NCBI GenBank assembly: GCA_963744145.1 | Contig: CAVUSO010000001.1 | Span: 7,072,001 to 7,136,000 of the forward strand | Direction: 5' to 3' | Source of the DNA: an uncultured cyanobacterium | GTDB taxonomy: Bacteria; Cyanobacteriota; Cyanobacteriia; Cyanobacteriales; CAWUOF01 | DNA length: 64,000 bases | Part shown: piece by piece, positions 14,104 through 64,000 of the stretch | Layout of the letters: each line of letters begins with the position of its first letter | How positions within the stretch are numbered: the stretch's first letter is position 1 | Translations under genes and position numbers: made by a program | Notes under the pieces: generated by a model | The model's input: only the letters and a program-made list of their open reading frames with translations | Database searches by the model: none | Told to the model about the DNA's origin: nothing

Positions 14104-15558
14104 ATGGTTCCATTTTTACCTCTCTTTCCGCTAGCACAGGTGACTCCGAGTCCTCAACCACCAGTGATTCCACCCGTAACAGTACCTGTATTACCACCTC
14201 CAGAATCAGTACCACGATTGGAAACATTACCCCAATTAGAACCATTACCACCACAAGAGGTCATCGAATCAACCGAAGTTCGTCCTCTCCCAGGGAAACT
14301 GGATGAAATTCCGGTATTTAATAGCAATAGTCCGGAATTAGTGCAAACAGAAGGCATTTTACTATCTACTTTTCCACCTGACCATAAAAAAGTTCCTGCT
14401 GCACATTTGAATTTTCCTTTTCAAGGACGCTTTGATATTTTTTCTCACCATATCGTTAAAGCGAGAACTTTAGCCCAAACCCGTACTCTGTTTCAGGGCA
14501 TATTAATATATAACCCCAGTGCCAATCCAGTCAAGCTAGATATTTTACAGGGTGCCACTTATTTAACTTCTCCTGATGCACTATTTTTAGATTTACCAGA
14601 TTTGGTGGAAAATCCTGTCGGAAAAGTTTATGCAGGACCCGGAAGTCGCACGGTGAATGATGTTTTACGTCAGCTTAGACAAGCATTTTTACCTCCCTTC
14701 CTGATCATTCCACCACAACAAACAGTCACGTTAATAAATTTGCCTATTCCTTTGGGCAAAGTTGTCCCTACTTCTAATGGTCGCTCAACTCTAATTCGCT
14801 TGTCGAGTAGCGGTCCAGTTTATGTAGCTAATTTAGCCATGTTTGCTCCTCTTAATCCCAATGGTAGTGAAAGACCTCCAACTTCAGCAGAATGGCAAAA
14901 ACTACTCAATGATGGGGGATTAGCAGGACCAAGAGATCAATTACCAACTCCTTTGGAACAGTCATTAGGTAATATAGTTTATGGTCGGGTTGCGGGTGTG
15001 GCTCAGGGATCGCAATGGAATGGGCTGATTACTGATAATCCTCAGATCGATTTTTTAAGTATTCCTCTACCAGGACAATCCTTTTCCTATGTTTTAGATA
15101 CTGTGCCAGAAGTTACCTTTGGTACTGGTCAAATTCAAAGTGCTCCCATGTTAGCTCGTTATCCAGATACGGCTTATTTTGCTCACGGAAATTATGGCAT
15201 TGAATATAATTTGACCTTGCCTTTATCTAATTTAACTGATGAAACCCAGATGGTTATAGTTAAATTATCTACACCTTTGAAAGCTGATGAGCCAGCTGAA
15301 GGTTTATTGTTTGTTAAACCTCGCGATCGCGAGGTTTTCTTTCGCGGTACGGTGAAAGTGAGTTTTAATGATGAGCATGGTCTGACTCAAAGTCGCTATG
15401 TCCATTTAGTCCAGCGACGTGGACAACCAGGAGAACCTTTGGTCAGATTATCTATGGCTCCTAAGTCTCGTACTATGGTACAGGTCGATTTTCTTTATCC
15501 CCCTGATTCTACTCCCCCTCAAGTGTTGATGATCAAAACCTTGAATTTGTCTAATTAA
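14104..15558 (+). CDS. DUF3370-family protein
   Basis: VRPLPGKLD.IPVFNSNSPELVQTEGILLSTFP...AHGNYGIEY...DFLYPPDSTPPQVL. Confidence 0.8.
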   Translation: MVPFLPLFPLAQVTPSPQPPVIPPVTVPVLPPPESVPRLETLPQLEPLPPQEVIESTEVRPLPGKLDEIPVFNSNSPELVQTEGILLSTFPPDHKKVPAAHLNFPFQGRFDIFSHHIVKARTLAQTRTLFQGILIYNPSANPVKLDILQGATYLTSPDALFLDLPDLVENPVGKVYAGPGSRTVNDVLRQLRQAFLPPFLIIPPQQTVTLINLPIPLGKVVPTSNGRSTLIRLSSSGPVYVANLAMFAPLNPNGSERPPTSAEWQKLLNDGGLAGPRDQLPTPLEQSLGNIVYGRVAGVAQGSQWNGLITDNPQIDFLSIPLPGQSFSYVLDTVPEVTFGTGQIQSAPMLARYPDTAYFAHGNYGIEYNLTLPLSNLTDETQMVIVKLSTPLKADEPAEGLLFVKPRDREVFFRGTVKVSFNDEHGLTQSRYVHLVQRRGQPGEPLVRLSMAPKSRTMVQVDFLYPPDSTPPQVLMIKTLNLSN

Positions 15559-32012: not shown

Positions 32013-32277
32013 ATACTACCGTCTCCAACTGGCACACTATGACCCAAATCAAATCTGGAAAAATCTGGGGTTCCTTTTTAACCCGATTTAATAATTTAAG
32101 ATTTTTAGCTTGAACTAAGCTGGTTTGTGCTAAAATCCCAATACTCAATTATTATTTGGGGTTTTTCAGGGAAGTAGTCTATTGGCTACAATAGGATTCT
32201 ATCTTTTCCTGAAGCGATCGCTTTTTTTTGTAACTTCCTGATTGCTCGGATTAGTAATTCCTCCTAAAATAAGGGTT

Positions 32278-33129
32278 ATGTCATCAAATAGAATTAATAT
32301 TATCCACCTCTCCGATTTACATTTTGGAACTGAAGACAATGCTAAAATTTGGTCAGGTCAACTTGCAGAAGATGTTGACGAATTGAAGTCGAAGTTTTCC
32401 CATATAGATGTGGTTATTTTATCTGGTGATATTGCTAATAGATCTACACCACCAGAATATAAGGCTGCTAAAATTTTTGTAGATAATATAAAGGAAGAAT
32501 TTAATTTAGAACCTAATCAGATTATTATCGTTCCGGGAAACCACGATCTTAATTGGGATTTAGCAAAAGAATCTTATAATGAATTACAAGATAGACCAAC
32601 ATTTCCAGGTAAAAATCATATTATAAAAACTGAAACAGTAAAAGATATTTTATCCTCAATGATGGCCCTTTTAAATCGTTCTGTTGTAGTTGAAAGATAT
32701 TTTATTAGAGATGACAAAAAATATAAAGATCGCTTCCAACATTTCAGTAAATTCTATGAAGATATCAAAGGAGAACCTTATCCTTTAGAATATGAAGATC
32801 AAGGCATTTTACATTATTATGAGTCCCGAAAACTGCTGATTCTGGGGTTAAATTCTGCTTGGGAATTAGATCATCATTATAAGACTCGTGCTGAAATTAA
32901 CGAAAATGCTATTAATAAAGCATTGAAAACAATTCGCAACAATCCAACTTATCAAGACTGTTTAAAAATCGCAGTATGGCATCATCCACTGCATAGTTCT
33001 TTTGAAGATCGTATTAAAGATCACGGTTTGATCCAAACATTAGCGCGTAGTGGTTTCCGTTTAGCTCTACATGGACATATTCACAAGGTCATGGTGAAAA
33101 TCATTTGTGCGAGTTATTATTGTCTTTGA
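32278..33129 (+). pseudogene. Calcineurin-like metallophosphoesterase domain, apparently truncated after the last metal motif
   Basis: HLSDLHFG, LSGDIAN, VPGNHDL, VWHHP, LHGHIHK motifs; recognisable sequence ends immediately after GHIHK. Confidence 0.7.
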
Positions 33130-49283: not shown

Positions 49284-50300
49284 CTATTTGACAAACTGAG
49301 GCATAATTTCTGCTGCTGTAAATAAACCGTAAATTCCTCGACGATGTAAGGATATACCAGCTTTGAGATAACCAAAAGCAGGTCCACAAACATTAGCAGC
49401 CATACTGGTTTCATCACCGAGAGTGAAGGTATGAGTAGAAATTTTGCCCTCAAAGGTGCGACCGGTGACCTGAACATTAGTGCTAAGTGGTTTTTTCGCA
49501 TTACGGGTATCCACAATTCCCCCAACTGTTACCCGATCGCGATCGCAAATTCCCGCTAACTCTAACATTAAGTCATCGGCGTGTTCCATATTCTCTAAAG
49601 TGATTAAACCGTTAGTAGTATCTAGTAAGGCTGCTACTTCAGCATCACTCATAGCTCGAGCTTTTTCCACATTGTAACCGGGTAAATGGGCGATATCTTC
49701 GCGGATTGTGGCTCGATAAGCTTCCCAATTAGCAATTCCGACCCCAAAGGTAATTTTCACACTATGAATTTCCGCATAACTTTGAGCTGCGATCGCTGCT
49801 GCTGCGGTTAATAATCCGGGAGTTGCTCCACAACCAGTCATGTAAGTAATTTCTGCTGTTTGGAGTTCGTCTTTTAACTCTAGGAGTAATTCTAGAGCGC
49901 TAGTTCGTTTGATCGCATCCACTAATACCCCTTTCCAACCCGATTGGATCAACTCACGGGCAACAGAAGCCATAAAATTATTAGGTAAATTGGGTAAAGC
50001 GAGGAAATATCCATCGACTTGGGTAGGTGGTGAGATGAGTTCGGTAATACTGCGATCGGTAATTTTCCCTCCTGATGCTAAATATCCTAAAGATCCTTGA
50101 GCTTTATAAGTAGCAATACAGGAATCCGGATTTAGCCCTTGACTATCATACACATAACCTTTTTGATCGGCGGCGGCTACCCAAATCATTTCTTGTTTAG
50201 GTGTAATCAGCTTCGCTGCTGCTTGTCCCAGCCCACCAAAACCGAGTATTCCAACTCGAATCGAACTATTGACTTGATTGAGAATTTGCTTGGCACTCAT
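49284..50300 (-). CDS. bioU: BioU, suicide enzyme of biotin synthesis that replaces BioA
   Basis: Rossmann [46 protein letters not shown]. Confidence 0.85.
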
Positions 50301-50473
50301 TACTTAATTATTGCTCATTTTTCTTGATCGATTTTAGGTCAATTGAGCAGATATCAGCGCGTAATACCAGTTTGATAAATTGACCCTACAGATCATACAG
50401 CAGACCTATTTATGAAGTCCAGTAGTGTGAGCGGTGGGGTCAGGTTAACCCAAATACTCCAGCGATCGGATAG

Positions 50474-52462
50474 CTATTTAGTTTTAGATTCAACGGTGAC
50501 TCCCCAAGTATCTAAGGTCGTCCCTAGGGATTGATCGAGATTGGTCAAAGCGTTAAGATAAGTAATTTTAGCAACAAGTTCGTTAATTTTAGCTGTTACT
50601 AAAGCATCTTGATAAGTAACAATTTGAAAAAGGCTAGTAGAAGTTAGTCCTAATTTGTGTTTTTCTTCTTCGTTCTCTAATTGTTTTTCTGATGATTCCC
50701 GTGCTTGTCGAGTAAGTTCCACTTGTTGAAGACTCGAATTCACATTTCTGACGCTATTAGTTATTTCAATATCTATATTTTCCTGCAACTGGGCTAACTT
50801 GTTCTCTGATTCCAATAAATTGACTCGGTTACGTTGAAAGCTGTCTTCCACTGCATAATTATTGCCAAAGGTTCGACTCAATGTAAATTTTGCTTGTAAA
50901 GCTGCGGTTCCTACTTGTGCAGTACCATTCATATTGCCATAACTCGCATTAAAATCTAAATTCCAGCGTCGATTATCTGCTGCTATTAATAGGTTATATT
51001 TGTTCATATCATGGGTAAATTTTTGCTGTAAATAATCTGGTCGATTTTCAAAAGCTAGCTGTTTTAATCTATTTACATCTAAAGATTTTGCGGTGATGGT
51101 GAGATTTTCGATTGGGATAATATTAAGATTACGTTCAATATTCAGAAGATTGAGAAGTTGTAGTCTGGCTGTATCAAGAGCATCTTCTGCACTTAATAAA
51201 CTTGCTTTTTGGTTAGCAACATTAGTTTCATTTTGAACCAGATCAACTCGTGCTGATTTTCCTGCTTCAATAAAAGCCTGAGTAATTTCTAATAATTTCT
51301 GAGCACTAGCTAAGGAAATGCGCTGGATTTCTGCTTGTTGTTGGGCTTGAATTAAAGTTCTATAAGCTACAATAGCGTTAGTAATAGTGGTGATTAGGGT
51401 TGATTTTAAACCTTGAATGTTAGCGCGTTCAGTAAGTCGAGCAATGGCAATAGATGCTTGGTTGATATTAGCACCAAATCCTTGTAATAGGGGTTGATTA
51501 AAAGCTACCTGAAAAGCTTGATTGACGTTACCTTGGGTGATGAGATTACCAGACCCATTTGTCGTTGGTGATTGTCCTATTCCGGTCCAGCTAAAATCAA
51601 ATTCTCCACCCGTAGGAATCTTGACAGCAACTGTTGCTCCTACTCCGATTTGGCTAGAATTTGAGCTACTATAACCAACATCTTGTCGATTAATTGAAGC
51701 TGAGATACTAGGGATAATGCTAGGAACATATTTACTTTCTGCGACGCTGAGGTCTGCTCTTTGTGCTATTCTCTCTAAATAAGCAGTTTTGATATCTCTA
51801 TTATTTGCTAAAGCTAAAGTTACTACGTCAGCAAGGGTTAATTTGATTCCCTGTTGAGGTGGAACTAGAACTGATTTGTCTGGTGCTACACTAGGTTGAG
51901 GTGTGACTGGAACTGATTTGTCTGGTGCTATACTAGGTTGAGGTGTGATTGGAACTGATTTGTCTGGTGCTATACTAGGTTGAGGTGTGATTGGAATTGG
52001 TTGATCTGGTGCTACAGTAGGTTGAGGTGTGACTGGCTCTAGATTACTTACTAATAAATGTTTTGATGGTTGATTAACGGTAATTAATTGTTTGTTGTCA
52101 GAGTCGCGATCGCTTTGAGCCAAAATCACTGGTTGAGCCGTTAATCGATGATCAGTCAATTTTTCGACTTTATGACTAGATGGAGCCAGATCAGTAGTTG
52201 TTTGTTGATGATCTAAATCTAGAGATGAATTAATATTTGCTGATAATGCCCCTAGTAAAGATTTTTCTGGTAATAAGGTTTCAGCGCTAGCTTTAGCAGC
52301 AAATTTTAGATGGGATTTAAACAGAAAAGTAAAAATAGACAAAATACTGACTATCACACTAATTATCGCGATCGCTTTGATCACACTCACCCCGACAGGT
52401 TGAAAAAAGCGATCGCGTTGAACTTTTATTTTTTGGGGAGAACTTGGTGGTAACTCTGGCAT
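50474..52462 (-). CDS. TolC-family outer-membrane efflux protein with long Pro-rich N-terminal extension
   Basis: LTLADVVTLALANNRDIK, FNQPLLQGFG, AFENRPDY, LDQSLGTTL. Confidence 0.88.
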   Translation of the reverse strand: MPELPPSSPQKIKVQRDRFFQPVGVSVIKAIAIISVIVSILSIFTFLFKSHLKFAAKASAETLLPEKSLLGALSANINSSLDLDHQQTTTDLAPSSHKVEKLTDHRLTAQPVILAQSDRDSDNKQLITVNQPSKHLLVSNLEPVTPQPTVAPDQPIPITPQPSIAPDKSVPITPQPSIAPDKSVPVTPQPSVAPDKSVLVPPQQGIKLTLADVVTLALANNRDIKTAYLERIAQRADLSVAESKYVPSIIPSISASINRQDVGYSSSNSSQIGVGATVAVKIPTGGEFDFSWTGIGQSPTTNGSGNLITQGNVNQAFQVAFNQPLLQGFGANINQASIAIARLTERANIQGLKSTLITTITNAIVAYRTLIQAQQQAEIQRISLASAQKLLEITQAFIEAGKSARVDLVQNETNVANQKASLLSAEDALDTARLQLLNLLNIERNLNIIPIENLTITAKSLDVNRLKQLAFENRPDYLQQKFTHDMNKYNLLIAADNRRWNLDFNASYGNMNGTAQVGTAALQAKFTLSRTFGNNYAVEDSFQRNRVNLLESENKLAQLQENIDIEITNSVRNVNSSLQQVELTRQARESSEKQLENEEEKHKLGLTSTSLFQIVTYQDALVTAKINELVAKITYLNALTNLDQSLGTTLDTWGVTVESKTK
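51853..52038 (-). repeat. 42-bp (14-aa VPITPQPSIAPDKS) intragenic tandem repeat, about 4.5 copies
   Basis: 42-bp period seen directly (GGTTGAGGTGTGA at 51894, 51936, 51978, 52020). Confidence 0.9.
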
Positions 52463-52496
52463 AATTACTAAAATTCCCTGATTCTAATAAGTCCAT

Positions 52497-53672
52497 TTAT
52501 GAACTACGCAAAGCTTTAACCGGATCGAGCTGACTAGCACGGAGAGCAGGTAGAAATCCAGACCCCACACCCACCAGTAGTGCTGAACCCAAAGATATGG
52601 TAGCAGTTCCCATATCAAAATGATAGGGTAATTTAAAAGTATCAGATACGACAATGGTCAAACCATGCACAACAATAATAGCAGCCAAACCACCGAATAA
52701 ACTTAAAATAGCTGCTTCTAGAATAAATTGGAACAGGACATCCTGCTGAGTTGCTCCGATCGCAATTCGTAAACCAATTTCTGGAGTACGTTCAATCACT
52801 GCGGCAATGGTAATATTAGCAATACCGACACCACCAACCAATAGGGAAATTGCACCTACTACGGTCAAAGCTCGCGATGCTAATACTAGAGTTTCTCGTT
52901 GTTCAAGAATATCTTTGATATTCTTGAAAATCAATATCTCTGCACCAGGAAACCGCTGTAACAACAGTTTTTTTACCTGCTCTTCGAGTTTGTTCAAATC
53001 TTCTAAATTGTATGGCCTTATTTCAATTGGATTGATCCAACGTCTACCGGTCATTGCAGTAAGGAGGGATAGTGGTACTAACATTTGTCCGCGAGGTTTA
53101 TCGTCTTTATAGAGCAACTTAGTTTCCATAACTCCTACAACAATATAGAGTCTACCGTCAGCATAAATCCGCTGATTGATGGGATTTTGTTGATTAAAAA
53201 GTTGCTCAGATAGCAATTCATCAATAATCACTACGGGTCGATAATTACTAAAATCAGCCTTATTTAAAAATCGTCCTTTTAGAATTAACCTACCTGAAGT
53301 AATTAAATAATTTTCAGAAACAGCAGTGATATCAAGATCAGCCGCTTTATCTTGAAATTTAATTTGATTGGCGGGAAACCAAGTAGAGGTACTCATTGCT
53401 TGCACACCCACTAACCGTCGTTTTAACCATTCCATGTCTTCTAACATCAGCTTTCTACTATCTTTAAACCATACATAAACTGTAACTCTCGGAGCTTCCC
53501 GTTTAGCTAATTGCTGTGCAATCACACTGCTACTAATATTACCAACTTGCAAAGTCGCATTCACCGCAGCCACCCCCATGAATACTCCCACCGTAGTAAG
53601 AACAGAGCGTAAAGGATTACCGCGCAGAGAATCCCAAGTAAGAGTTAGTAAATCTAAAACTGCTAGACTCAT
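52497..53672 (-). CDS. MacB/FtsX-like ABC permease (no fused ATPase)
   Basis: NPLRSVLTTVGVFMGVAAV, ISLLVGGVGIANI..AAVIERTPEIGLRIAIGA, PALRASQLDPVKALRS. Confidence 0.9.
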   Translation of the reverse strand: MSLAVLDLLTLTWDSLRGNPLRSVLTTVGVFMGVAAVNATLQVGNISSSVIAQQLAKREAPRVTVYVWFKDSRKLMLEDMEWLKRRLVGVQAMSTSTWFPANQIKFQDKAADLDITAVSENYLITSGRLILKGRFLNKADFSNYRPVVIIDELLSEQLFNQQNPINQRIYADGRLYIVVGVMETKLLYKDDKPRGQMLVPLSLLTAMTGRRWINPIEIRPYNLEDLNKLEEQVKKLLLQRFPGAEILIFKNIKDILEQRETLVLASRALTVVGAISLLVGGVGIANITIAAVIERTPEIGLRIAIGATQQDVLFQFILEAAILSLFGGLAAIIVVHGLTIVVSDTFKLPYHFDMGTATISLGSALLVGVGSGFLPALRASQLDPVKALRSS

Positions 53673-53701
53673 AATTTAGATCCGGAGCATTAAATAATTT
53701 T

Positions 53702-55304
53702 TTATTTTTCTTTTTTAACAGGTTCTTTTTCAGGACTGGTTTGGAGTGTAATCGGGATTCCTGGTTTTAAAACTGAATCCGGAGAGGGTATTAAAACCTG
53801 ATCTTCTGCTTGCAAACCCTTAGACACTTCTACTGTTGTTAATCCTTCTAATCCCAAAGTAATCGGCTTTTTTTGGGCTTTACCTTCAGCATCTCTTACC
53901 CACACATAAGATGATTTTCCATCTCGCTGAATCGCCTCCGGTTCCTAATACTACTACGTTTTCTCGTCGCGCCAAAACGATTTCTACACTTACCTGACTA
54001 CCAGGTATTAGCTTTCCACTTGGTTCATCTAGTTGTACTGTTGCTGGTACTCCAACTTGACCCCCGGATGAACCGGATGAACCGGATGAACCTTTTGAAG
54101 CATCAGGACCGATCGCTTGGAGAGATATTTTTTTTACCCGTCCGCTAAATTTTTGTTCCTCTGGACCGATTACACTAATTCGGGCTGTTTGGTTCAATTT
54201 AACTTTGGCAGCATTAAGAGTAGAAAGACTAATTTTCACTAATTCTTGAGAGCGATCGCCTACCGTAATTAATTCAGCACCTCGTCCTACTCCATCACCA
54301 TTATTGCACTTAATATTCAAAACTATGCCGTTAATTGGAGAAGTGATAATATTATTTTCCAGTTCCTTTTCCAAAGTTTGTTTTTTAGTTTCAAGTCCTT
54401 GCATGTCTAGGTTACTAGATTGAGCGTCTACTTCAGCATTACGTAAAGTCGATACTGCTGTTGCTAAGTTAGATTGAAAATCTTTTAGAGCAGATTGAAG
54501 CGATTGAATGTCTTCGATGTTTTTTTGCTGATTTTGTTCTCTGGTTATCTGAGCTTGTTGCAGTGAAATCTTACTAGTATTGACTGCTAATTGAGCATCT
54601 CGGAGATTAGATTGAGCAGTACGAACATCGCTTTTTTTGGTATCTAGCTCATCTTCGGAAATAAAACCTCTTTGAAAAAGTTTCTCAGACACCTGAAGTT
54701 TTCGCTGTGCTGTAGCTAAATTGGCTTCGTTTTCAGGTAATTTTTGGATAGACTTTTCCAGGTCGATTTGTTTTTGCTGAATTTCTAATTGATTGTCGTT
54801 GCGTAATTGTTTTTGAATAGTCCGTTTGATCTCAAGTTCTTTGGATTGTAATTTTTGTTTACTTAGCGCCAAATTTTCTTCCGCTTCAGCGACTTTTTGT
54901 CGATTGCGGTTTACCGTGATCACCTGTTTGTTAATTGCAGATTGGATGTCTAGCTCCTTAGTTTTTCCATCTGGATTACGAAGCATAATTAGGGATTGTC
55001 CTGCTTGAACGCGATCGCCAATTTGGACAAGTACCTGATCTACAGTAACATCTCCTGGGGAATTCAGACTTTGTTGTGCTTGCAGTTCTACCACACCACT
55101 TTCATTAATGCTAATTTCCACGTTATCTTTTTTAGCTGTAGTCGCGAGGACTGAAATTGGTGCTAAGGTCGGATTAAGCAGTTTTTGCACTACAAAAAAC
55201 CAACCACCCACAGTAATTATAGCTAGTATGCCTGACCAGACTAACCATTTGAGCCCAATCTGAAATTCTTTTTTCCCCAATTTTCCGATCAAGCTCATTA
55301 CCAT
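53702..55304 (-). CDS. Efflux periplasmic adaptor (MacA/HlyD-like); frameshift at about 53940
   Basis: N-terminal TM, lipoyl halves VLVQIGDRVQAGQ / ITSPINGIVL, long coiled coil; C-terminus continues in another frame as EAIQRDGKSSYVWVRD...ITLGLEGLTTVEVSKGL. Confidence 0.85.
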
Positions 55305-55374
55305 GATTTGCTTTTCGATGATGGTTGTTATCTAAAATCCGAACCAGCTAGCTTGCACAGATTCGGGACTTTAT

Positions 55375-57420
55375 TTAAAGCCGATAAACCCGATCGCACC
55401 CCCGAATTGTACTCTGGCGGTGAGCAACCACAATCCGCGTTATCCCTAATTTTTCCAAGCTTTGAGTCACGACCTCCTGAGTTTGATTATCCAAAGCCGA
55501 AGTAGCCTCATCAAAAATCAGGATACGTGGTTGACGAACTAAAGACCGAGCGATTAATAGCCGCTGTCGCTGTCCGCCGGAAAAATCCCCTCCTCCCTCT
55601 GATACTCTGGTGTGCATCTGCATCGGCATTTCCTGAATATCCCGATCCAATCCTGCCATTTTCGCTGCTTCCCAAGCTTGGTCGAGAGTGATCGGTATTC
55701 CTCCTGCAATTACATTCCAGATTGAACCTCCCATCAACCGACTATTCTGTAACACTACTCCTAACTGACTGCGTACCTTTGATATATCCAATGTCGCTAA
55801 ATCTCGTCCATTATACATTACAGCCCCTTGCGCTGGTCTTTCAAATCCCAACAATAACCGCACAATGGTCGATTTACCACTACCACTAGGTCCAATAATC
55901 CCGATCAACTCTCCTGGTTTCACCTCTAAAGTCAAGTCGGATAATACCCAAGGTTGATTCTGACCGTAACGAAACCAGACCCGCTCCAGTTTTACCTCTC
56001 CAGACAACTCTCCCGGATCAGCTCCTTGGTTAGTGGTTTCTGGAACTGCGTGCAATATTGGTTTTACTCGCTCCCATAACACCGAAATTTCCAACACGCT
56101 CACTACTGTCCTGCTCAGACTAGTAGCTCCACCCACAAATGTGCCAAATGCGGCGTTAAATGCTAAAAACTGTCCTGCTGATAAACCTCCATCTCCTGGA
56201 TTTTTGCCCAGAGTAGCCACAGCGAAAGAATATAAGGCGATCGCTGTCACGACCGGTACGATCGTATTAAACAGGGTCATAAAATCCTCTACCTGTTGAG
56301 TAGATAGGGTCAGCTTCATCTTTTGGCTATACTTCTTAGCCCATTTGCTAAGAGCCCTGTCTTCCGCAGCAGCAACCCGCAACTTAGATATTCCATCTAA
56401 AGTTTGCACCATCAATCCCACAATTTCACCGCTCAATTCTTGTAAGGGTAGGAACTTTTGCCGAGTAATGATGCCGACTATGACAGTGATCACACTGGTG
56501 ATTACCACCACCACAATTGCAACCATTGTCAAGGGAATGCTGTAGTAAAGCAATAAACCCAGATTCAACAGCGAGAAAAAGCTACTCAGCAAGGTGGTCA
56601 TTAAGGTGCTGTTGAGGCGATCGTGAATTTGAGAAATTGCCGATACTCGATTTTGAATATCTCCTGTGTTGTATTGGCGAAAAAATGATGTCTGGAGTCG
56701 CAATAATCTATGCCAAACTGCTGCTTGGATGTCCGCGCTCATCGCAGTTTGCCAGCGCATAGTCAGAATGCTTCTAGTCAGTTGCAGTACGGTCATAGCA
56801 AAGCTTGCTGCTAACAAACCGATCCCGATTTGTAATAATAGTCCGCGATCGCCATTGGGAATAATATAGTCAACCAGTAATGCTGTAGCCTGGGGAACTA
56901 CCATTCCCGCCAAGGAGACTAAAACTCCAAATAAGATGGTCTTGATTATGTCGCCATAACGACCCTGAAACACAAATTGGAGCAGATTTAGAGGAGAAAG
57001 CGATCGATCGGGAAACGGTCGATAAAAGGTATAGGCTTGATGGGATAGATGTTTGGCTGTAGCAAAGCCAACGGTCATGCGCTGGAAATTTACGGGGTCA
57101 AAGATTTCATATCCTCGACCATTCTTAGGTAGCAAAGCTACTGGGCGTTGTTCTGTTTCTGTAGCGATAAATCCGAGCAATGGTCCGTAATCTTGCTGCC
57201 ACCAAATATCATCTAAGGTAATCCGTCGGACTCGAAACCCAGAATTCTGAGCTATTGTCTCTACAGAATTTACTTGGCTTTTATTATTTTTGGGAGGAAT
57301 AATAGGGATGTCTAATACTTTACCCACTGCTCCCATAGCTATTAATAGGGGTTCTGTGGCGGAGTTAGCCTCGAACGCTGGATTGAGAATAGACGCTAGT
57401 TCTCTTAATGCTTCCTTCAT
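55375..57420 (-). CDS. NHLP/bacteriocin-system ABC transporter, permease/ATPase subunit lacking peptidase
   Basis: GFRVRRITL...WWQQDYGPLLGF, AYTFYRPFP, GISKLRVAAAE.RA, GPSGSGKST, FSGGQRQR. Confidence 0.88.
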   Translation of the reverse strand: MKEALRELASILNPAFEANSATEPLLIAMGAVGKVLDIPIIPPKNNKSQVNSVETIAQNSGFRVRRITLDDIWWQQDYGPLLGFIATETEQRPVALLPKNGRGYEIFDPVNFQRMTVGFATAKHLSHQAYTFYRPFPDRSLSPLNLLQFVFQGRYGDIIKTILFGVLVSLAGMVVPQATALLVDYIIPNGDRGLLLQIGIGLLAASFAMTVLQLTRSILTMRWQTAMSADIQAAVWHRLLRLQTSFFRQYNTGDIQNRVSAISQIHDRLNSTLMTTLLSSFFSLLNLGLLLYYSIPLTMVAIVVVVITSVITVIVGIITRQKFLPLQELSGEIVGLMVQTLDGISKLRVAAAEDRALSKWAKKYSQKMKLTLSTQQVEDFMTLFNTIVPVVTAIALYSFAVATLGKNPGDGGLSAGQFLAFNAAFGTFVGGATSLSRTVVSVLEISVLWERVKPILHAVPETTNQGADPGELSGEVKLERVWFRYGQNQPWVLSDLTLEVKPGELIGIIGPSGSGKSTIVRLLLGFERPAQGAVMYNGRDLATLDISKVRSQLGVVLQNSRLMGGSIWNVIAGGIPITLDQAWEAAKMAGLDRDIQEMPMQMHTRVSEGGGDFSGGQRQRLLIARSLVRQPRILIFDEATSALDNQTQEVVTQSLEKLGITRIVVAHRQSTIRGCDRVYRL

Positions 57421-57458
57421 TGCCCCTGATCTCTATGGAATTTAGGTAAGATGGCACA

Positions 57459-58394
57459 TCAGGGTGACGAATTCTGATGGGGAGTAAATCTCGCCAAAAG
57501 TTCAGTCTGAGATAATTGCCAGAGTAAGGGAACTAACTCATCTGTTGATAACTCAATCATTGGTTCAATGATCTGAGCAAGTTCTGGTTCTAAAGAGCCA
57601 AACCGAATCCGCAGCAAATTTTCTACGAATAAGCGTCGTTCCTGCAAACGTCCTTCCAGTCGTCCTTCTTGTCGTCCTTCCAGTCGTCCTTCTTGCAAAG
57701 TAGCTTGCCGCCATTCCACATAAGCTGGTGATAAATTCATCATTAACTCCCTGTCTTCTTCACTAATATTTTGTATGCTTTCTATGTTAATCCGCCACAT
57801 CGAAATCTGTTCTAAGGTTTTCATCCGAAAGGGATGTTCTACTGCTAGTGCTAAAAGTTCATTGATTGCTTGTTGTTGAGTTGCGCCTTTTCCTAAAATT
57901 CTCACCCACAATGTTTCTGGTGTTGTCGGTAATTGGTTGATGGCGACAATTGCTGTTTTGAAGATATCGGCGAGAAAATAGATGCCTTTTGGCCATTTCT
58001 CTCTGGCTGGTTCCGCTCTGGCTGTTGCGATTAATCCTGCCGAAACTGATGGTGTTAACACCCACAGTGAGGCGAGGTTTTCTTCTTCAAGTTGTTGACG
58101 ATCGCGCCTAGATTGGCGCTGTTGTTCTGTCTGTACAGCAATTAGTTTTAGTATACAGGTACGCAGCTCGGTTGGAGTAGGTTGATTCCGAAATGCTTCT
58201 AATAAACAAGTCCGCTCTACCATCTGTCCTAATAATCCTAGCTGATGGGGATTTGCGGTTGGTGCTGGCGCAAAAAATACATCTACTTGGCGGATTTCTG
58301 GGCTGACTTCTCGACTAATTTCTACTGTTCCTAATGGTTCTAGTAGTCCGGCTAAATATTGTTTCGCAAATTGATCGTGTGGTTGTCTGGTCAT
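57459..58394 (-). CDS. Rpn-like PD-(D/E)XK family protein (DUF4351-like C-terminus) inserted in the transporter operon
   Basis: HDQFAKQYLAGLL, QVDVFFAP, LLEAFRN, LPTTPETLWVRILGKG, EGRLEGRQEGRLEGRL repeats. Confidence 0.75.
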   Translation of the reverse strand: MTRQPHDQFAKQYLAGLLEPLGTVEISREVSPEIRQVDVFFAPAPTANPHQLGLLGQMVERTCLLEAFRNQPTPTELRTCILKLIAVQTEQQRQSRRDRQQLEEENLASLWVLTPSVSAGLIATARAEPAREKWPKGIYFLADIFKTAIVAINQLPTTPETLWVRILGKGATQQQAINELLALAVEHPFRMKTLEQISMWRINIESIQNISEEDRELMMNLSPAYVEWRQATLQEGRLEGRQEGRLEGRLQERRLFVENLLRIRFGSLEPELAQIIEPMIELSTDELVPLLWQLSQTELLARFTPHQNSSP

Positions 58395-58582
58395 CCGTCT
58401 AATCTGATTGTTTCCTGACTCTCATTTTATCAATATTTTCGCGATCGCTCACACCACCTTGTTTTCCAAATATAGAAGATTGAATAGCGAGTCATTCTTG
58501 CTCCCCTTTCCTTTTAGGAGAGGGGTTGGGGGAGAGGTATTCTGCTAGCATGAAACAGCCTTGGGATCTAGAAATACTTCCT

Positions 58583-60781
58583 TCATTCTGCTAACTCATC
58601 CATTTTTGCCTCAGCACCCAGTAATTCTTGATAAACTCCCTCAACGGCGCATAATTGTTCATGAGTTCCTCGCTGTACCACTCGTCCGCGATCGAACACA
58701 ATAATTTCATCACAATCAACGATTGTACTTAATCGATGAGCGACTACAATACAAGTACATTGACGTTGGCGCAGATTTGCTACTAGCTGTCTCTCGGTGT
58801 CGGGATCTAATGCACTTGTAGCCTCATCCATAACTAAAATCGTGGGATTATTCACCAATGCACGGGCAATTTCTAAACGCTGACGCTGACCGCCACTGAG
58901 GTTGGCGCTGTGTTCTAATAGTTTAGCATCATATCCACCCAATACCTCCATCACTACATCATGGATCAGTGCATCTTTACAAGCTTTAATTAATTTTTCC
59001 TCTGGCACATTAGCATCCCAAAGGGTGAGATTATCTCGCACTGTTCCCTCAAACTGTAATATCTCTTGTTCCACAAAAGACAGCGATCGCGCCAGCATTA
59101 ATCGCGGAATTTGAGATCGGGGAATACCATCAAACAAGATCTCACCTTGCCAAGGTTGATCCAAACCACAAATCAATTTAGCGATCGTTGATTTCCCTGA
59201 ACCAGTTGCTCCTACCAGTGCTTTTCTTTGTCCTGGTTCTAAAGATAAACTAAAATCTTTAATTAGTGGCGGATTAACTGGAGAATAACCAAAGGTAATA
59301 TTTTTAATATCTACTCGACCTGTAAGTTGGACAAGGGTTTGGCTTGCTGTTGATTTCCTTGGCTCTAATTCGACATCGATGGAATTATCCAAAACGTCAT
59401 CTAAACGGGTTAAGTCTCCCTTTAGCTCCTGCAACAGGTTAGCAAACTGGACTAAAGTATTTACAGGTGCTTGAAACTGCCTCATTAAGACTTGAAAGGC
59501 GAATAACATACCGATTGTTAATCCACCTGACATCACTCGCCACCCACCAACTATTAAGATCATGGTGGTTGTGAGTGCGGTTAACAATGTTGGTACTATC
59601 CCTAGGATTTGGTTGTAAACATCAAGTTCCTGTTGGATGTTAGTCGTATTGGCGTAGGAACCAGACCAGACTGTGAAGAATTCTGACTCTAAACCAGATG
59701 CTTTTATAGTTTCAATGCTTTGAATTGCAGAGATGCCAACTCCGGTCATTCTCCCTTGTTCTTGGAGTAAACGCATCTGTGCATCTACTCTTTTTTGTGA
59801 CATCCATTTTAATACGAGGATATTCGCGATCGCCGAGCTAATACCTATCAACGTTAAGAGCGAGTCATATTCTAACATGATCGCCCCATAAAATACTACC
59901 ATCACTGCATCAATTGCGGTTGTTGCTAATTGCCCCGACAGAATTTCGGCAACTCTAGTATTAATATCAACCCGATTAGCAATTTCCCCTGCATATCGTT
60001 GGGCGTAAAATCGGACAGGTAATTTGAGAACATGATCATAAAAGCGGGCTGACATGACTACGGCTAACTTCACTTTTAGTTGGCGTAACAATCGTAGTCG
60101 TAACAGATTTAGGATACTCTGCAATAGGGTAGCAAAAGACATAGCTAAAAGTAACCCTGGTAACCAGTTGGTATGACTTTCTACCAGGATGCGATCGACA
60201 AATATTTGACTGAATACCGGAAGTGCTAATCCCGGCACAACCAGCAGAAAACCTGCGATGATTAAATACAATACTTCCCCAACCGAACCACGTAACCGAT
60301 CTATTAGGGATAAAAATACATTGGGTTGGCGTCCGCCAGGAATGAATTCTGGACTAGGTTCTATTTCTAAGATGATCCCAGTAAAACTGCGAGCAAATGC
60401 TTTCCAGGAAATCTGTCGCCTGCCGCCCGCCGGATCGTTGAGAAATACCCGAGTGCGATTGTACCCCTCTACTACTAAAAAGTGATTGAAATTCCAATAA
60501 GCAATGCAGGGGAATGTGACTTCGGGGAGTTCTTCTAGTTCGATCGTATAGCCATTAGCGATCATCCCATAGCGTCTCGCTGCTAACACCAGATTAGCAG
60601 CATGAGAGCCATCACGAGATACACCGCATTCAATCCGCAGTTCGGCTAGTGGAACTATGCGACCGTAGTAGGCGAGAATGATCCCAAGAGAGGCTGCGCC
60701 ACATTCGGTCGCTTCCATTTGGATCACGATCGGAGTTTTAACTCGCCAGTTGTTTGATGGCAAAAATTCTGGCAATAGCAT
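58583..60781 (-). CDS. NHLP-family bacteriocin export ABC transporter, C39 peptidase/permease/ATPase
   Basis: VKTPIVIQMEATECGAASL (catalytic Cys), WNFNHFLVVEG..LNDPA.G (His/Asp), GATGSGKST, LSGGQRQRLEIARAL. Confidence 0.93.
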   Translation of the reverse strand: MLLPEFLPSNNWRVKTPIVIQMEATECGAASLGIILAYYGRIVPLAELRIECGVSRDGSHAANLVLAARRYGMIANGYTIELEELPEVTFPCIAYWNFNHFLVVEGYNRTRVFLNDPAGGRRQISWKAFARSFTGIILEIEPSPEFIPGGRQPNVFLSLIDRLRGSVGEVLYLIIAGFLLVVPGLALPVFSQIFVDRILVESHTNWLPGLLLAMSFATLLQSILNLLRLRLLRQLKVKLAVVMSARFYDHVLKLPVRFYAQRYAGEIANRVDINTRVAEILSGQLATTAIDAVMVVFYGAIMLEYDSLLTLIGISSAIANILVLKWMSQKRVDAQMRLLQEQGRMTGVGISAIQSIETIKASGLESEFFTVWSGSYANTTNIQQELDVYNQILGIVPTLLTALTTTMILIVGGWRVMSGGLTIGMLFAFQVLMRQFQAPVNTLVQFANLLQELKGDLTRLDDVLDNSIDVELEPRKSTASQTLVQLTGRVDIKNITFGYSPVNPPLIKDFSLSLEPGQRKALVGATGSGKSTIAKLICGLDQPWQGEILFDGIPRSQIPRLMLARSLSFVEQEILQFEGTVRDNLTLWDANVPEEKLIKACKDALIHDVVMEVLGGYDAKLLEHSANLSGGQRQRLEIARALVNNPTILVMDEATSALDPDTERQLVANLRQRQCTCIVVAHRLSTIVDCDEIIVFDRGRVVQRGTHEQLCAVEGVYQELLGAEAKMDELAE

Positions 60782-61162
60782 TTAGCAACTTGTAACTTAA
60801 TTTTTCTTTAGACTTCTTGCAAAAATAACTAGGACAGGCAAGATGCCTGTCCCACATGATGGCAAAAATTCTGGCAATAGCATTTAGCAACTTGTAACTT
60901 AATTTTTCTTTAGACTTCTTGCAAAAATAACTAGGACAGGCAAGATGCCTGTCCCACATGATGGCAAAAATTCTGGCAATGGCATTTAGCAACTTGTAAC
61001 TTAATTTTTCTTTAGACTTCTTGCAAAAATAACTAGGACAGGCAAGATGCCTGTCCCACATGATGGCAAAAATTCTGGCAATGGCATTTAGCAACTTGTA
61101 ACTTAATTTTTCTTTAGACTTCTTGCAAAAATAACTAGGACAGGCAAGATGCCTGTCCCACA
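60755..61162. repeat. 102-bp tandem repeat x4 covering the start codon of the C39 transporter and half of a MITE/REP element
   Basis: Units start at 60755, 60857, 60959, 61061; identical except one SNP (AATAGCA in copies 1-2, AATGGCA in copies 3-4). Confidence 0.95.
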
Positions 61163-61236
61163 AGAGTTTTTTTGGTTGTGGGACAGGCATCTTGCCTGTC
61201 CAGTAAATTGATCAACATGACTTTTGCAAGAGGTCT
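61116..61236. mobile_element. MITE-like element of about 121 bp with terminal inverted repeats and internal REP pair
   Basis: AGACTTCTTGCAAAA ... TTTTGCAAGAGGTCT termini; internal GGACAGGCAAGATGCCTGTCCCACA / TGTGGGACAGGCATCTTGCCTGTCC. Confidence 0.7.
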
Positions 61237-61238
61237 TT

Positions 61239-61914
61239 TCATTTGTAGATTGGCAACACAAAGGATAGGGGCGGACGCTCTTCGACGGTGACTGTTGCTG
61301 TTATTGTAGTTCCAGCGATCAGATGTAAATCCGGTCCGTTAGAAGCCGTCCATTTCAAACCCGAAGGATTATTGGAATCGGTTTGCAGTTGAGCAATAAC
61401 TTCTATTTTCTCGACCTCCTCACCCACAATCTTCTGGGCTATTCTTGAATTTCCGATTACCTTCGTGGCACTTTCTACGGTGGTGGGATTCTGGGAAACA
61501 TCAATAATTTTGCCTAGAATTGAGCCAAATTTCTCCCGCTTAACAATATCTGGTGTGATCTGAATTTTCATTCCCGGTTTAACTCGCAGACTGTCTGACA
61601 GATCCAGAAAAGCTACTGCGGTCAGAGTTGCGGTTTTGCTCTTGCCGATCGGATGCACTAATACAGCCTCGACCGGAAACAGTAATGGGAATTTTGCCAA
61701 AAATCCCCCAAAGAAGGCTGAAGATTACCATTGTGCCAAATCCTGCCAAGGTCAGCCAATCCATCGGACGCAATAAGCGCATCGCCCGATCGAGTTGCTC
61801 TGTGGAATATAAATAGTCTACGGCTTCTTGACGGAATATCTGTCTGGGTAATTCCTCTGGAGCAGTGGGAGCATCTGACGGGTTTTCGTTTCTCTGTTGA
61901 GTTTCTTCGGTCAT
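61239..61914 (-). CDS. NHLP bacteriocin-system secretion protein (HlyD-like), short form of about 225 aa; frameshift near 61665
   Basis: IFRQEAVDYLYSTEQLDRAMRLLRP.DWL...WGIFGKIPITVSGRG joins VLVHP...VKPGMKIQITPDIVKREKFGSILGKI...GLKWTASNGP...VTVEERPPLSFVLP. Confidence 0.85.
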
Positions 61915-61931
61915 AGAACTCTAAATTTTAT

Positions 61932-62867
61932 TTATGCTGGATAACTCAAATCCCCCTGACGAATGCGCTCAATGAAATATTTTGGCATGGTTCCCACCCA
62001 CTTTTCTTTGATCACTCCATTTTCTAATAGCACGGCTGTAGGTATGATATTGATTCCTAACTTTTCTTGTTGCTTTTGTTCGATTGGTACTATGGGATAG
62101 TTTAATTCATTATTGTCGATAAACTCTTGCCCTTCTGCTATTGATGTTAAGGCGATCGCGCCGATCACTTCTGGTAAGTCCTCTCGATAGTGAACCACAT
62201 TAAGAACATTCAACCAGTTCTTACAAGCTGGGCATTTCATCCCTAAAAATACTATTAGTTTGGAACCAGACATAAATAATGTTGGATCAAACTCATCCCC
62301 TAACCATTCTGGTCGCCAAGTGCGGTTGGCTTTCACTGGGGTTAAATCGATATAGGGACGACTGTTCTGCCCATAATATTCTAGGGAACCAGAAGCTAAA
62401 GCACCGCTAGTAACTAGGGTGGCTAATACTACTAGCCACTGCCACAATACTGTAGGCTGGTTGTTCTCAAGGAAGGTAGCAAATACTAATAGAGCAATAT
62501 AGACCAAATTGAGGATGATACTTTGATTGGGTGTCACATTTAGCCAACCGTTATAACATCCACAGTCCTCTGTGCGTCCCGTCGAAGTGCTCCAGTAGGT
62601 GAGAAACGTAAGGATAATTAATAACAGGATGGTCAGAGGAATTATTCCTGATGGTAGCACTCCTAAAATTAGAGCCACTCCTAATGCACATTCGAGCGCC
62701 GTAAATGTTAATGCTGCCGCTCGAATTGACGGAAATTTCTGCAATAGCTTGAGTTTGGAAATGTGTTCAACAAATTTCCAAGGTTCGATGACTTTGGCTA
62801 CACCAGTCAATAATAAAATGCTCCCTACCAGGAGCGACGGAATTACAGTATATGTGTCTGTAAACAT
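61932..62867 (-). CDS. MauE/DoxX-family membrane redox protein fused to a thioredoxin-fold (CxxC) domain
   Basis: LLLTGVAKV, ECALGVAL, EDCGCY (MauE-type CGC loop), about 5 TM segments; then KCPACK and GINIIPTAVLLENG.IKEKWVG (cis-Pro loop). Confidence 0.8.
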   Translation of the reverse strand: MFTDTYTVIPSLLVGSILLLTGVAKVIEPWKFVEHISKLKLLQKFPSIRAAALTFTALECALGVALILGVLPSGIIPLTILLLIILTFLTYWSTSTGRTEDCGCYNGWLNVTPNQSIILNLVYIALLVFATFLENNQPTVLWQWLVVLATLVTSGALASGSLEYYGQNSRPYIDLTPVKANRTWRPEWLGDEFDPTLFMSGSKLIVFLGMKCPACKNWLNVLNVVHYREDLPEVIGAIALTSIAEGQEFIDNNELNYPIVPIEQKQQEKLGINIIPTAVLLENGVIKEKWVGTMPKYFIERIRQGDLSYPA

Positions 62868-63050
62868 TTGCTGAAAAATTTATTTTGGCTAATTGTTTTA
62901 GTCCTAAATTTATGGCGGTTTTTTTAAACCATTATTCCTAATTATTAGCTTTTTTGCGATTCTCCGCGTGATTATTGTCTCTATCTGCCGATTTTTTGCC
63001 TAATTTATCTATTTTAGATGGCATTTTTTTTGATTTGTTAAAAACAATAG

Positions 63051-63085
63051 AGGGAGAAACAGGCATCTTGGGTCTGCTTCTCCCT
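63051..63085 (-). terminator. Hairpin between precursor locus and MauE-Trx gene
   Basis: Minus strand AGGGAGAAGCAG-N11-CTGTTTCTCCCT followed by CTATTGTTTTT. Confidence 0.6.
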
Positions 63086-63224
63086 GTTGTCACACACCAT
63101 TAAACAGGTAATGAAATCCTCGAGGATTTCGAGGGTTACAACCGCAACCAAGGAAAGGGTAGCGGTTAGAGAGTTAGGTTAGTGGTGTTTAACAACCGCA
63201 ACCAGGGGTATCAAGAAATCAGGG

Positions 63225-63392
63225 TTAGAAAGGGTTAGAGGGTTGGGTTGGTTGTGCGTAACAAGGACAAACAGAATCTCCACAGGCACAAGCCCCAACA
63301 ACCCCTTGCAATTGCTCCATCGCAAGTTGATTGAGTTGCTTCATTCCCCGCTGAGTTCCTGTGCGCTTTAGAGGTTGGTTAGATTTAGCCAT
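63225..63392 (-). CDS. Putative RiPP/bacteriocin precursor, 55 aa: MAKSNQPLKRTGTQRGMKQLNQLAMEQLQGVVGA|CACGDSVCPCYAQPTQPSNPF
   Basis: Hand-translated (below the ORF-track cutoff); purine-rich AAAAGGTACAGGGAT before ATG; L..EQL.GV.GA double-glycine-type cleavage motif; first gene of a cluster with a C39 peptidase exporter. Confidence 0.8.
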   Translation of the reverse strand: MAKSNQPLKRTGTQRGMKQLNQLAMEQLQGVVGACACGDSVCPCYAQPTQPSNPF

Positions 63393-63850
63393 ATCCCTGT
63401 ACCTTTTGAGTATTAATTGGTTGACCTCTTTATTAGAATTCTTTTTTTCTGATCATGCTGTGTTCTTGGCCACAGGCTGTAAGTGTTTCCGATCACTTGC
63501 CAACTACTCGTTCCATGCCTATAATCGCGATTCGTGATGGGGCGTGATGGCAGAGAAAATCAGAAAGCCGCGATCGCCTCAGTCCACTAGAAAATATAGC
63601 GATCGCGATTAGACCAGCAAGCAAAAGTCAGTCCCACCATCAAAAATTAATCTTGTGGGACACTCAGCTTGACTATCCTAGTTATTTTGGCTTTCTTGTC
63701 TATATGTGGATGGAACGCAAGCGATCGCTGGTTGGGGATGAGCATGGCGATCGCCTTGACCAGCCAATTATCTAAGGTACGATAATTTCCATGATTTTCA
63801 GCTACAATTAGTTAATTGGCCAAAAAAATCAATAAAAAAGGATAATCCCG

Positions 63851-64000
63851 ATGACAGAAAGACTAGATAGAATAGAAGCTGTGATCGAAGCCAATTCAGC
63901 CCAAATTCAAGCCAATTCAGCCCAAATTCAAACCAATTCAGCCACAATTGCAGAACTGGGCACTAGGATCAATTCATTGATGCAAGTTGTAGAAATCAAT
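63851..64000 (+). CDS. Partial coiled-coil hypothetical protein with 21-bp heptad repeats
   Basis: MTERLDRIEAVIEANSAQIQANSAQIQTNSATIAELGTRINSLMQVVEIN, open to the window end. Confidence 0.6.
   Translation, partial: MTERLDRIEAVIEANSAQIQANSAQIQTNSATIAELGTRINSLMQVVEIN

Follow-up and report, generated by a model that had tools for sequence, protein, structure and literature searches.

What does a bacterium produce with a peptide exporter whose genes stand beside that of a membrane-bound thiol-redox protein, and does this protein act on the exported peptide? The question is raised by a locus in a stretch of 64,000 nucleotides from an uncultured cyanobacterium (GenBank assembly GCA_963744145.1, contig CAVUSO010000001.1, positions 7,072,001–7,136,000 of the forward strand), which we refer to as the window and number from its first letter. 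Here, a single run of minus-strand genes, from 63392 down to 50474, encodes a small cysteine-bearing peptide, a fusion of a MauE-type membrane domain with a thioredoxin (Trx) domain, two ATP-binding cassette (ABC) proteins, termed ABC1 and ABC2, and further components of an export system (Table 1). An earlier note, made from the sequence alone, had described this run as a self-contained export cluster and possibly as a new class of disulfide-bearing peptides made by the ribosome and modified after translation (RiPPs). The gene order that it gave, with a divergent open reading frame (ORF) starting at 63851 as the upstream border and bioU following downstream, was confirmed, as all named genes lie on the minus strand at their coordinates. 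We consider it rather probable that the cluster is a system for the export of a double-glycine-type peptide, of the cyanobacterial type with a C39 peptidase-bearing ABC protein, a second ABC protein and an HlyD-like protein, and that this system has acquired its own disulfide-forming enzyme.

The run is headed by the putative precursor, a 55-residue ORF that lies 357 nt upstream of the MauE-Trx gene on the same strand and reads as a 34-residue leader followed by a 21-residue core, in which four Cys are arranged as CxC...CxC. In double-glycine leaders, Gly at position -2 is followed by Gly, Ala or Ser at -1, hydrophobic residues occupy positions -4, -7, -12 and -15, and an acidic residue is found at -8 or -9. 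The ORF agrees with this consensus at seven positions (Ala -1, Gly -2, Val -4, Leu -7, Glu -9, Leu -12 and Leu -15), and the predicted cut falls after G33-A34, i.e. at the A34/C35 bond. An alternative start at Met17 is possible and would shorten the leader, which at no more than 34 residues is not of the long nitrile-hydratase-like or Nif11-like kind. Likewise, the peptide matched no Pfam or NCBIfam family at E ≤ 0.01, including the models for nitrile hydratase leader peptide (NHLP) and Nif11 precursors. When the window was searched for the underlying pattern, defined as an intergenic ORF in which a double-glycine-type leader precedes a core holding two Cys or more, only one match besides the precursor was found, on the other strand and 34 kb away; from this count we roughly estimate that chance alone would put about 0.003 matches on the right strand at no more than 400 nt from the MauE-Trx gene.

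The expected processing enzyme is encoded in the same run. ABC1 scores 1075.5 bits against TIGR03796 (cutoff 853.3) and 120.4 bits against Peptidase_C39, which places it in this family, and its catalytic residues Q21, C27, H100 and D116 are intact and invariant in seven aligned C39 domains. A complex model of C39 residues 1–150, built from this alignment of seven, with the precursor reached a score of 0.64, compared with 0.02 for the best of three controls; among solved complexes, 116 of 157 attain this mark, and among mismatched pairs 2 of 215. The contacts agreed by at least 59% from run to run, with a predicted local distance difference test (pLDDT) value of at least 50 for the partner, and they join precursor residues 28–36 to C39 residues 24–28 and 99–101, including the catalytic C27 and H100. 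Since solved complexes of C39 domains with leaders exist, this result may reflect mere likeness to them and is not proof of binding.

The second gene encodes the 311-residue fusion protein, whose N-terminal part matches the MauE family with 59 bits (PF07291, gathering score 27). An AlphaFold2 model of the protein (pLDDT 86.6, predicted template modelling score 0.74) comprises five membrane helices (residues 2–27, 45–68, 72–95, 113–133 and 141–168), followed by a TlpA/ResA-like thioredoxin fold. As is characteristic of MauE, a CGC motif (C102, C104) is found in the loop joining helices 3 and 4, and the thioredoxin domain has the typical redox motif, CPAC (C212, C215), together with a cis-proline (P276). 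Both centers are strictly conserved: D101-C-G-C-Y105, C212, C215 and P276 are invariant in 25 aligned fusion sequences, and C60 is not conserved in this alignment. Because two helices (113–133 and 141–168) lie between them, the CGC and CPAC motifs should face the same side, irrespective of how the protein is oriented in the membrane. On the level of sequence, residues 202–300 match ResA, StoA and MauD weakly (MauD E 0.0049), with no NCBIfam cutoff reached. A Foldseek search against the PDB returned membrane-anchored TlpA-, ResA-, CcmG-, FetE- and SdbA-type proteins (best E 2.3e-5; FetE and ResA 2.3e-5 to 1e-4); the matches listed all fall on the thioredoxin domain, with no DsbB or VKOR fold among them for the membrane part.

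For the membrane domain, an oxidative role is suggested by a preprint of March 2026 on work in Escherichia coli, in which MauE proteins of two phyla restored motility and alkaline phosphatase in a dsbB mutant (10.64898/2026.03.05.709764). Each Cys of the MauE CXC motif, which is predicted to face the periplasm, was needed for this complementation (10.64898/2026.03.05.709764).

Relatives of the fusion are numerous. A search of 5.8 billion proteins yielded 101 clusters, 99 of them at E ≤ 4e-40 and almost all cyanobacterial where named, with annotations that include MauE/DoxX family redox-associated membrane protein, TlpA family disulfide reductase and peroxiredoxin family protein; the nearest (P0001–P0003) share 78–88% identity with the window protein. 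Three metagenomic relatives of about 535 residues (P0087, P0089 and P0090) have an extra C-terminal domain resembling 2-oxoglutarate-Fe(II) oxygenases and prolyl hydroxylases (PF13640, PF13661), which hints at further peptide modification in some lineages.

We compared 50 loci encoding such relatives, with flanks of up to 10 kb per side, in which ABC genes were sought by tblastn with the window proteins; the closest relative among them is L001, from a Crinalium metagenome-assembled genome (MAG). C39 or NHLP-type ABC genes were found within 10 kb of the fusion gene in 17 loci, in nine of which only the ABC2 type was seen. Fourteen of the 17 are of the NHLP type (L001, L002, L003, L009, L011–L014, L016, L020, L022 and L040–L042), and the other three (L031, L035 and L045) carry more distant C39-ABC pairs. 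The pattern search placed leader peptides with at least two Cys no further than 2.5 kb from the fusion gene in 13 of the 50 loci; L035 has another at a distance of 1.2 kb, which was found by eye and brings the count to 14. The pattern is denser near the fusion gene (23 matches in 217 kb, 0.106 per kb) than far from it (13 matches in 473 kb, 0.027 per kb; binomial p = 6e-5), with the reservations that the p value overstates independence, because the loci are related, and that eight of the 13 far matches belong to a single array in L045. By identity to the query, the linkage spans about six lineages, namely the window with L001 and L002; L003; the Nostoc loci L023–L029 with L038; L031; L035; and L045, an Acidobacteriota MAG.

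These neighbouring leader peptides show no sequence kinship to each other. At the place that corresponds to the precursor, L001 and L002 have a different leader-bearing peptide with six Cys in its core; L031 has three six-Cys cores, and the Nostoc group has two-Cys cores. Same-strand leader ORFs within 4 kb that have any Cys in the core hold two, four or six of them, and six listed ORFs have none. In L024–L029 and L038, several of them lichen-associated Nostoc MAGs, the double-glycine-leader peptide genes are arranged in tandem about 60–750 nt upstream of the MauE-Trx gene. The only Nostoc core tested (L028:9134–9445), with two Cys, matches the chaplin domain (ChpA-C, E 3.5e-25), and we know of no earlier chaplin-like peptide with such a leader in cyanobacteria.

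A Pfam scan of the neighbours covered 129 of 152 ORFs in 18 of the 50 loci, leaving out 17 fusion genes, four very long ORFs and two ORFs of L036. Both L031 and L035 have the order Cys-rich peptide genes, SurA-type rotamase, fusion, long cyclic-nucleotide-binding (cNMP-binding) C39 ABC, HlyD and C39 ABC; L045 shares the ABC-HlyD-ABC order, without a rotamase match and with the peptide genes on the opposite strand. The Actinomycetota MAG of L041 has both the C39 ABC and the second ABC in a single ORF of 1492 residues (10945–15420), which adjoins the MauE-Trx gene and that of a cNMP-binding protein and resembles the ‘group VII’ form of Wang et al. (2011). In L001, the stretch from the six-Cys precursor to the MauE-Trx gene contains opposite-strand ORFs (2923–3737); one of them has an HNH-like Cys/His pattern, which suggests an insertion. 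Two broader approaches were less useful: a list of all small ORFs with at least four Cys near the fusion gene was too noisy, being dominated by intragenic shadow ORFs, and an all-against-all clustering of small ORFs was noisy as well, yet revealed the Nostoc leader-peptide family.

Table 1. Features of the peptide export cluster and its downstream neighbour, in window coordinates
Feature	Position	Strand	Length, evidence
Precursor peptide ORF	63225..63392	-	55 residues; ORF call, leader pattern
Spacer, precursor to MauE-Trx gene	62868..63224	-	357 nt; hairpins
MauE-thioredoxin fusion	61932..62867	-	311 residues; PF07291, 59 bits
Short NHLP-type HlyD-like secretion protein	61239..61914	-	two ORFs; TIGR03794 pieces
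102-bp tandem repeat, 4.0 copies	60755..61162		99% matches
ABC1, C39 peptidase / permease / ATPase	58583..60781	-	732 residues; TIGR03796
Inserted 311-residue ORF	57459..58394	-	weak DUF4351 match
ABC2, permease / ATPase without peptidase domain	55375..57420	-	681 residues; TIGR03797
Periplasmic adaptor (membrane fusion protein), frameshifted	53702..55304	-	HlyD_3, HlyD_D23, RND_mfp, DevB
MacB/DevC-type permease	52497..53672	-	391 residues; MacB_PCD and FtsX
TolC-like outer-membrane factor	50474..52462	-	662 residues; OEP
bioU, downstream of the cluster	49284..50300	-	628.7 bits, cutoff 600

The remaining parts of the export trio are a second ABC protein and an HlyD-like protein. ABC2 belongs to TIGR03797 (866.9 bits, cutoff 709.4) and matches only ABC_membrane and ABC_tran in Pfam; a truncation, which could be suspected from a profile match that stops at position 655 of 686, was ruled out, as the L001 orthologue is also 681 residues long. 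The HlyD-like gene, described in the earlier note as an NHLP secretion protein, matches TIGR03794 in pieces, being a naturally short form that is, moreover, split in the window. Its two overlapping ORFs (61579–61914 and 61239–61700) match positions 4–56 and 290–419 of the 421-position profile, scoring 51.2 and 131.9 bits where the cutoff is 156.2, and compared with the intact 229-residue orthologue of L001, the split comes down to one extra base at 61665. The intact orthologue P0102 reaches 186 bits, though spread over two stretches between which the middle of the profile is left out, and further intact short proteins (P0104–P0107, 221–232 residues) are 75–100% identical to that of L001. In this clade, HlyD consists of a membrane anchor and a C-terminal barrel, without the lipoyl and hairpin part (approximately profile positions 57–289). 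Longer relatives retain the segment that is absent from the short form, and the L003 protein is full-length (332.9 bits against TIGR03794).

Two further features set this copy of the trio apart from that of L001. Ahead of ABC1, there is a 102-bp tandem repeat that the earlier note had not mentioned. Each copy comprises a terminator-like hairpin with an 11-bp stem together with the opening 27 bases of the ABC1 gene; a 150-residue ORF at 60738–61190 is an artefact of this repeat. In L001, which lacks it, the gap between HlyD and ABC1 measures 14 nt. The other feature is an ORF of 311 residues between ABC1 and ABC2, which is missing from this place in L001 and L002; the corresponding gap in L001 is 4 nt. 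It had been called Rpn-like, a label that we cannot uphold, as no Rpn or PD-(D/E)XK model matched. No Pfam or NCBIfam family was found for it at E ≤ 0.01, and at E ≤ 10 Pfam gives only DUF4351 (E 0.017, residues 247–277). Its look-alikes form cyanobacterial clusters, and in one of them DUF4351 is found on 12% of the members.

Downstream of the trio, the run continues with an adaptor, a permease and a TolC-like protein. The adaptor matches HlyD_3, HlyD_D23, RND_mfp and DevB and has a long coiled coil; its frame changes by one base near 53943, and its true end is at 53702, as a tblastn match of the L001 adaptor runs on in another frame of the window. The permease matches MacB_PCD (80.1 bits) and FtsX (71.4 bits) and is directly followed by the gene for the TolC-like protein, both here and in L001. 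No ATPase partner for it was found next to the permease or elsewhere in the window, and L001 shows the same gap. Consequently, this set of adaptor, permease and OEP protein is incomplete as a MacAB/DevBCA-TolC tripartite system and is not counted as one. The TolC-like protein matches OEP in two stretches (118.7 bits) and TIGR01844 with 84.3 bits, under the cutoff of 225. It has 662 residues, compared with 493 for the counterpart in L001, and a Pro-rich N-terminal extension, which stems from a 42-bp repeat (4.4 copies, 51853–52036).

Together, these components suggest the following mechanism. The leader, recognizable by its motif, would bind the precursor to the C39 domain of ABC1 in the manner of our complex model. 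As is typical of its family, ABC1 would then cut after G33-A34 and, with ABC2 and the short HlyD, move the 21-residue core over the inner membrane. At the outer face of this membrane, the CPAC domain may oxidize the four Cys of the core to two disulfides, whereupon the CGC loop of the MauE domain would re-oxidize CPAC and pass the electrons to quinone, by analogy with the replacement of DsbB by MauE and with VKOR-Trx fusions. The TolC-like protein would provide the route through the outer membrane, and the adaptor and the permease could serve periplasmic peptide export or the protection of the producer. The mature peptide is most likely bacteriocin-like or has a role in signalling. In its main points, this follows the earlier note, which had proposed cleavage at GA, export and oxidative folding by a dedicated thiol-redox protein, and which now finds support in the leader motif, the intact C39 domain, the complex model, the linkage and the complementation by MauE.

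A more far-reaching version, which we regard as doubtful, is that export proceeds in two steps with a periplasmic stop, and that MauE-Trx fusions mark widespread, so far unrecognized disulfide-stapled exported peptides. In type I systems, it is the lipoyl and hairpin parts of HlyD that reach TolC. Because the short HlyD lacks these parts, ABC1 and ABC2 might release the cut core into the periplasm; there, the MauE-Trx protein would oxidize it, and the adaptor, the MacB-type permease and the TolC-like protein would expel the folded peptide. A precedent for such a substrate is the disulfide-bonded enterotoxin STII of E. coli, which is expelled by MacAB-TolC. The stapled peptides marked in this way would include chaplin-like and knottin-like ones, in cyanobacteria and beyond.

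Several observations weigh against the export of an oxidized peptide by this cluster, and they also bear on rival explanations. One set concerns the precursor, which found only itself in a word-indexed search of 5.8 billion proteins, and itself and one match that we judged spurious in a full HMMER search of 1.84 billion representatives; this match, a 214-residue repeat protein (E 9.5e-4), was dismissed as due to chance after inspection. Likewise, a phmmer search of 9,567 small ORFs from the 50 loci and the window returned only the precursor at a meaningful E-value. Since short ORFs are often uncalled in public data, this is weak evidence, and the case for the precursor as a real gene rests on its motif, its position and a model. 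Another set concerns the linkage, on which the earlier proposal turned and which holds for a part of the family: against the ABC genes in 17 loci and the Cys peptides in 14, in about six lineages, stand 25 of the 50 loci with neither peptide nor ABC gene in their flanks, six of them on contigs shorter than 5.4 kb. Moreover, the Okeania-, Dapis- and Trichodesmium-type loci L004, L007 and L017 adjoin a UPF0182 gene without any peptide context, which L039 lacks as well. All this would be compatible with a MauE-Trx protein that is a general periplasmic oxidase and merely neighbours an exporter of NHLP/Nif11 peptides encoded and modified elsewhere, with the 55-residue ORF being incidental or no gene at all. 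For modification in trans there is a parallel, as stand-alone LanM enzymes of Prochlorococcus seem to act together with two group V clusters of the genome that encodes them (Wang et al., 2011). We nevertheless think this rather improbable, given that the ORF opens the run and shares its strand, that it has a full leader pattern and a positive C39 model, that L001 and L002 keep their own six-Cys peptide at the same place, and that the linkage recurs as far off as Acidobacteriota. Furthermore, a family profile scan found no NHLP or Nif11 peptides in the 64-kb window, nor were any LanM, YcaO or RiPP-type radical-SAM enzymes detected with Pfam and NCBIfam (13 + 43 ORFs), as the earlier note had already observed; the only radical-SAM match in the window is lipoyl synthase.

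The direction of the redox reaction and the state of this gene copy can be questioned as well. The thioredoxin fold leaves the direction unsettled, because its closest structural matches belong to the TlpA, ResA and CcmG proteins, which are mostly reductases; FetE-type matches and the weak sequence matches to ResA, StoA and MauD point the same way. The fusion might thus reduce, isomerize or self-protect, i.e. keep thiols free, for instance for a metal, as the likeness of the CxC...CxC core to metal-binding motifs may suggest, rearrange mispaired disulfides, or render the peptide inactive at the membrane of the cell that makes it. We consider this quite improbable, as SdbA, which is also among the fold matches, is an oxidase, the membrane domain has one invariant Cys pair and no cytoplasm-facing pair for the import of electrons, and the Cys-bearing neighbour peptides have the even numbers expected for full pairing. 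On MauE itself, an earlier study had proposed a reductase, and MauE stood in for the oxidase DsbB in two assays (both in 10.64898/2026.03.05.709764). Lastly, the design may be as we propose, while this copy of the cluster is a decaying remnant that yields no product. The HlyD-like gene is split by a one-base insertion and the adaptor is frameshifted, a gene that is absent from L001 lies between ABC1 and ABC2, four terminator-like hairpins precede ABC1, and the close relatives P0104–P0107 have an intact short HlyD. The description of the cluster as self-contained was accordingly too strong, also in view of the MacB-type permease without an ATPase and the possibility of trans-acting enzymes outside the window. 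However, the urea transporter genes urtA and urtB at the opposite end of the window are broken in a similar way: urtB (2–499, 550–870) and urtA (968–2026, 1974–2306) are each split into two ORFs, which match consecutive parts of their NCBIfam profiles (window 2–2306). Frameshifts or stops are therefore spread over the window and not confined to the cluster, and they may be assembly indels or real, genome-wide erosion. The cluster copy of this genome may be impaired; yet with the precursor, the fusion gene, ABC1 and ABC2 all at full length and with intact motifs, a dead remnant seems unlikely to us.

If the cluster is indeed an exporter of an oxidized peptide, its closest functional parallel is found in the glycocin clusters, such as those for sublancin (sunA-sunT-bdbA-sunS-bdbB) and pallidocin (palA-S-T-dbA-dbB), which share with it a double-glycine peptide, a C39 ABC transporter (there of the SunT type), and a Trx-like protein with a membrane-bound disulfide protein; in the glycocin core, two disulfides are required for activity (PMC6405829). 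Glycocin clusters have a separate DsbB-like gene and a defining glycosyltransferase, are found in Gram-positive hosts and have neither HlyD nor TolC, whereas the window has a MauE-family partner fused to the thioredoxin domain, two ABC subunits and no glycosyltransferase. The exporter itself corresponds to the NHLP/Nif11 trio (TIGR03794, TIGR03796 and TIGR03797), the ‘group V’ of Wang, Fewer and Sivonen (2011), from which the window differs in a precursor that matches no NHLP/Nif11 model and in a short HlyD; the words thioredoxin, disulfide, cysteine and MauE do not occur in that paper. The idea of a mauE product acting on a peptide is likewise not without precedent: decRiPPter identified three candidate RiPP families in Streptomyces with mauE homologs, one of them also with mauD, for which peptide modification was suggested (Kloosterman et al., 2020, PMC7794033). 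These families are actinobacterial, predicted by machine learning and untested (PMC7794033). With the MauE/MauD pair of methylamine dehydrogenase biogenesis, the fusion shares the MauE fold, the CXC motif between helices 3 and 4 and a thioredoxin-like partner, and the natural client there is, as described, a small, disulfide-rich polypeptide, comparable to the small Cys peptide of the window; the window contains no mau genes, and its thioredoxin partner is fused and matches MauD weakly. A similar architecture is also known from VKOR-thioredoxin fusions, which occur in cyanobacteria and are thought to be general oxidases. They combine a four-helix quinone-linked oxidase with an extra helix and a periplasmic thioredoxin domain, an arrangement that the fusion would share according to our model; the membrane families are unrelated, and MauE-Trx genes are often cluster-linked. 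Thioredoxin-superfamily fusions account for 8.2% of the InterPro entries of MauE, and for 9.3% of those of VKOR according to a figure cited in the same text (10.64898/2026.03.05.709764).

The kind of system is thus already known from the BdbA/BdbB proteins of glycocins and from mauE in the decRiPPter candidates, and in view of these and of the MauE-Trx fusions recorded in InterPro, the proposal of a new disulfide-RiPP class was not borne out. What is new is an oxidase from the MauE family that is joined to its thioredoxin partner in one protein and recurs next to double-glycine Cys peptides, both in cyanobacteria and outside them, and, in this clade, its pairing with a shortened HlyD. Our literature searches turned up no paper that ties MauE-Trx fusions to double-glycine peptides or C39 transporters, and a term search of the main text of 10.64898/2026.03.05.709764 gave no mention of cyanobacteria, bacteriocins or C39. 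We have not filed the system as a new RiPP class because no class-defining tailoring enzyme (LanM, YcaO, radical SAM, ATP-grasp and the like) was found among the window ORFs, and because disulfide formation alone is ordinary oxidative folding; with disulfides alone, the product is an unmodified, class II-like exported peptide and not the result of a new modification chemistry. The system is of interest nonetheless. MauE has only just been proposed as the third bacterial disulfide-forming membrane enzyme, from complementation in E. coli, and methylamine dehydrogenase is its one known client. By pairing the fusion with a small, linked client peptide, clusters of this kind make the direction, the partner and the specificity of the enzyme directly testable. 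They also point to unstudied exported Cys peptides in cyanobacteria, in Nostoc symbionts of lichens and in Acidobacteriota, which would escape RiPP miners that rely on tailoring enzymes as well as bacteriocin miners whose training was on Gram-positive bacteria.

A RiPP-like setting of another kind surrounds some distant relatives: in L032, L033 and L046 (29–38% identity), the MauE-Trx gene has PqqD-like and PF14907 nucleotidyltransferase genes at distances of up to about 3 kb, joined in L046 by an HPr-kinase-like gene. We take this gene set to be associated with lasso-type or related RiPP clusters and have counted these loci against a general link to double-glycine peptides.

Some minor features of the window remain to be described. 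A scan for sigma-70 promoters gave four sites, fewer than the mean of 6.4 in shuffled sequences, with no convincing promoter for the precursor, and no Rfam family matched positions 50000–64000 at the gathering threshold. Among the hairpins of the spacer between the precursor and the MauE-Trx gene (62868–63224), one at 63134–63118 is terminator-like and may act as a transcription attenuator. On the same strand, 63038–63151 could encode a 37-residue peptide with four Cys from a TTG start; this ORF overlaps two of the hairpins, has no leader motif and is probably not a gene. Elsewhere, the window encodes a TnpB-family RNA-guided endonuclease (2743–4002; 84.8 bits, where the cutoff is 100), and an ORF at 32242–33126 weakly matches a model for an anti-phage phosphoesterase (87.7 bits, cutoff 420).

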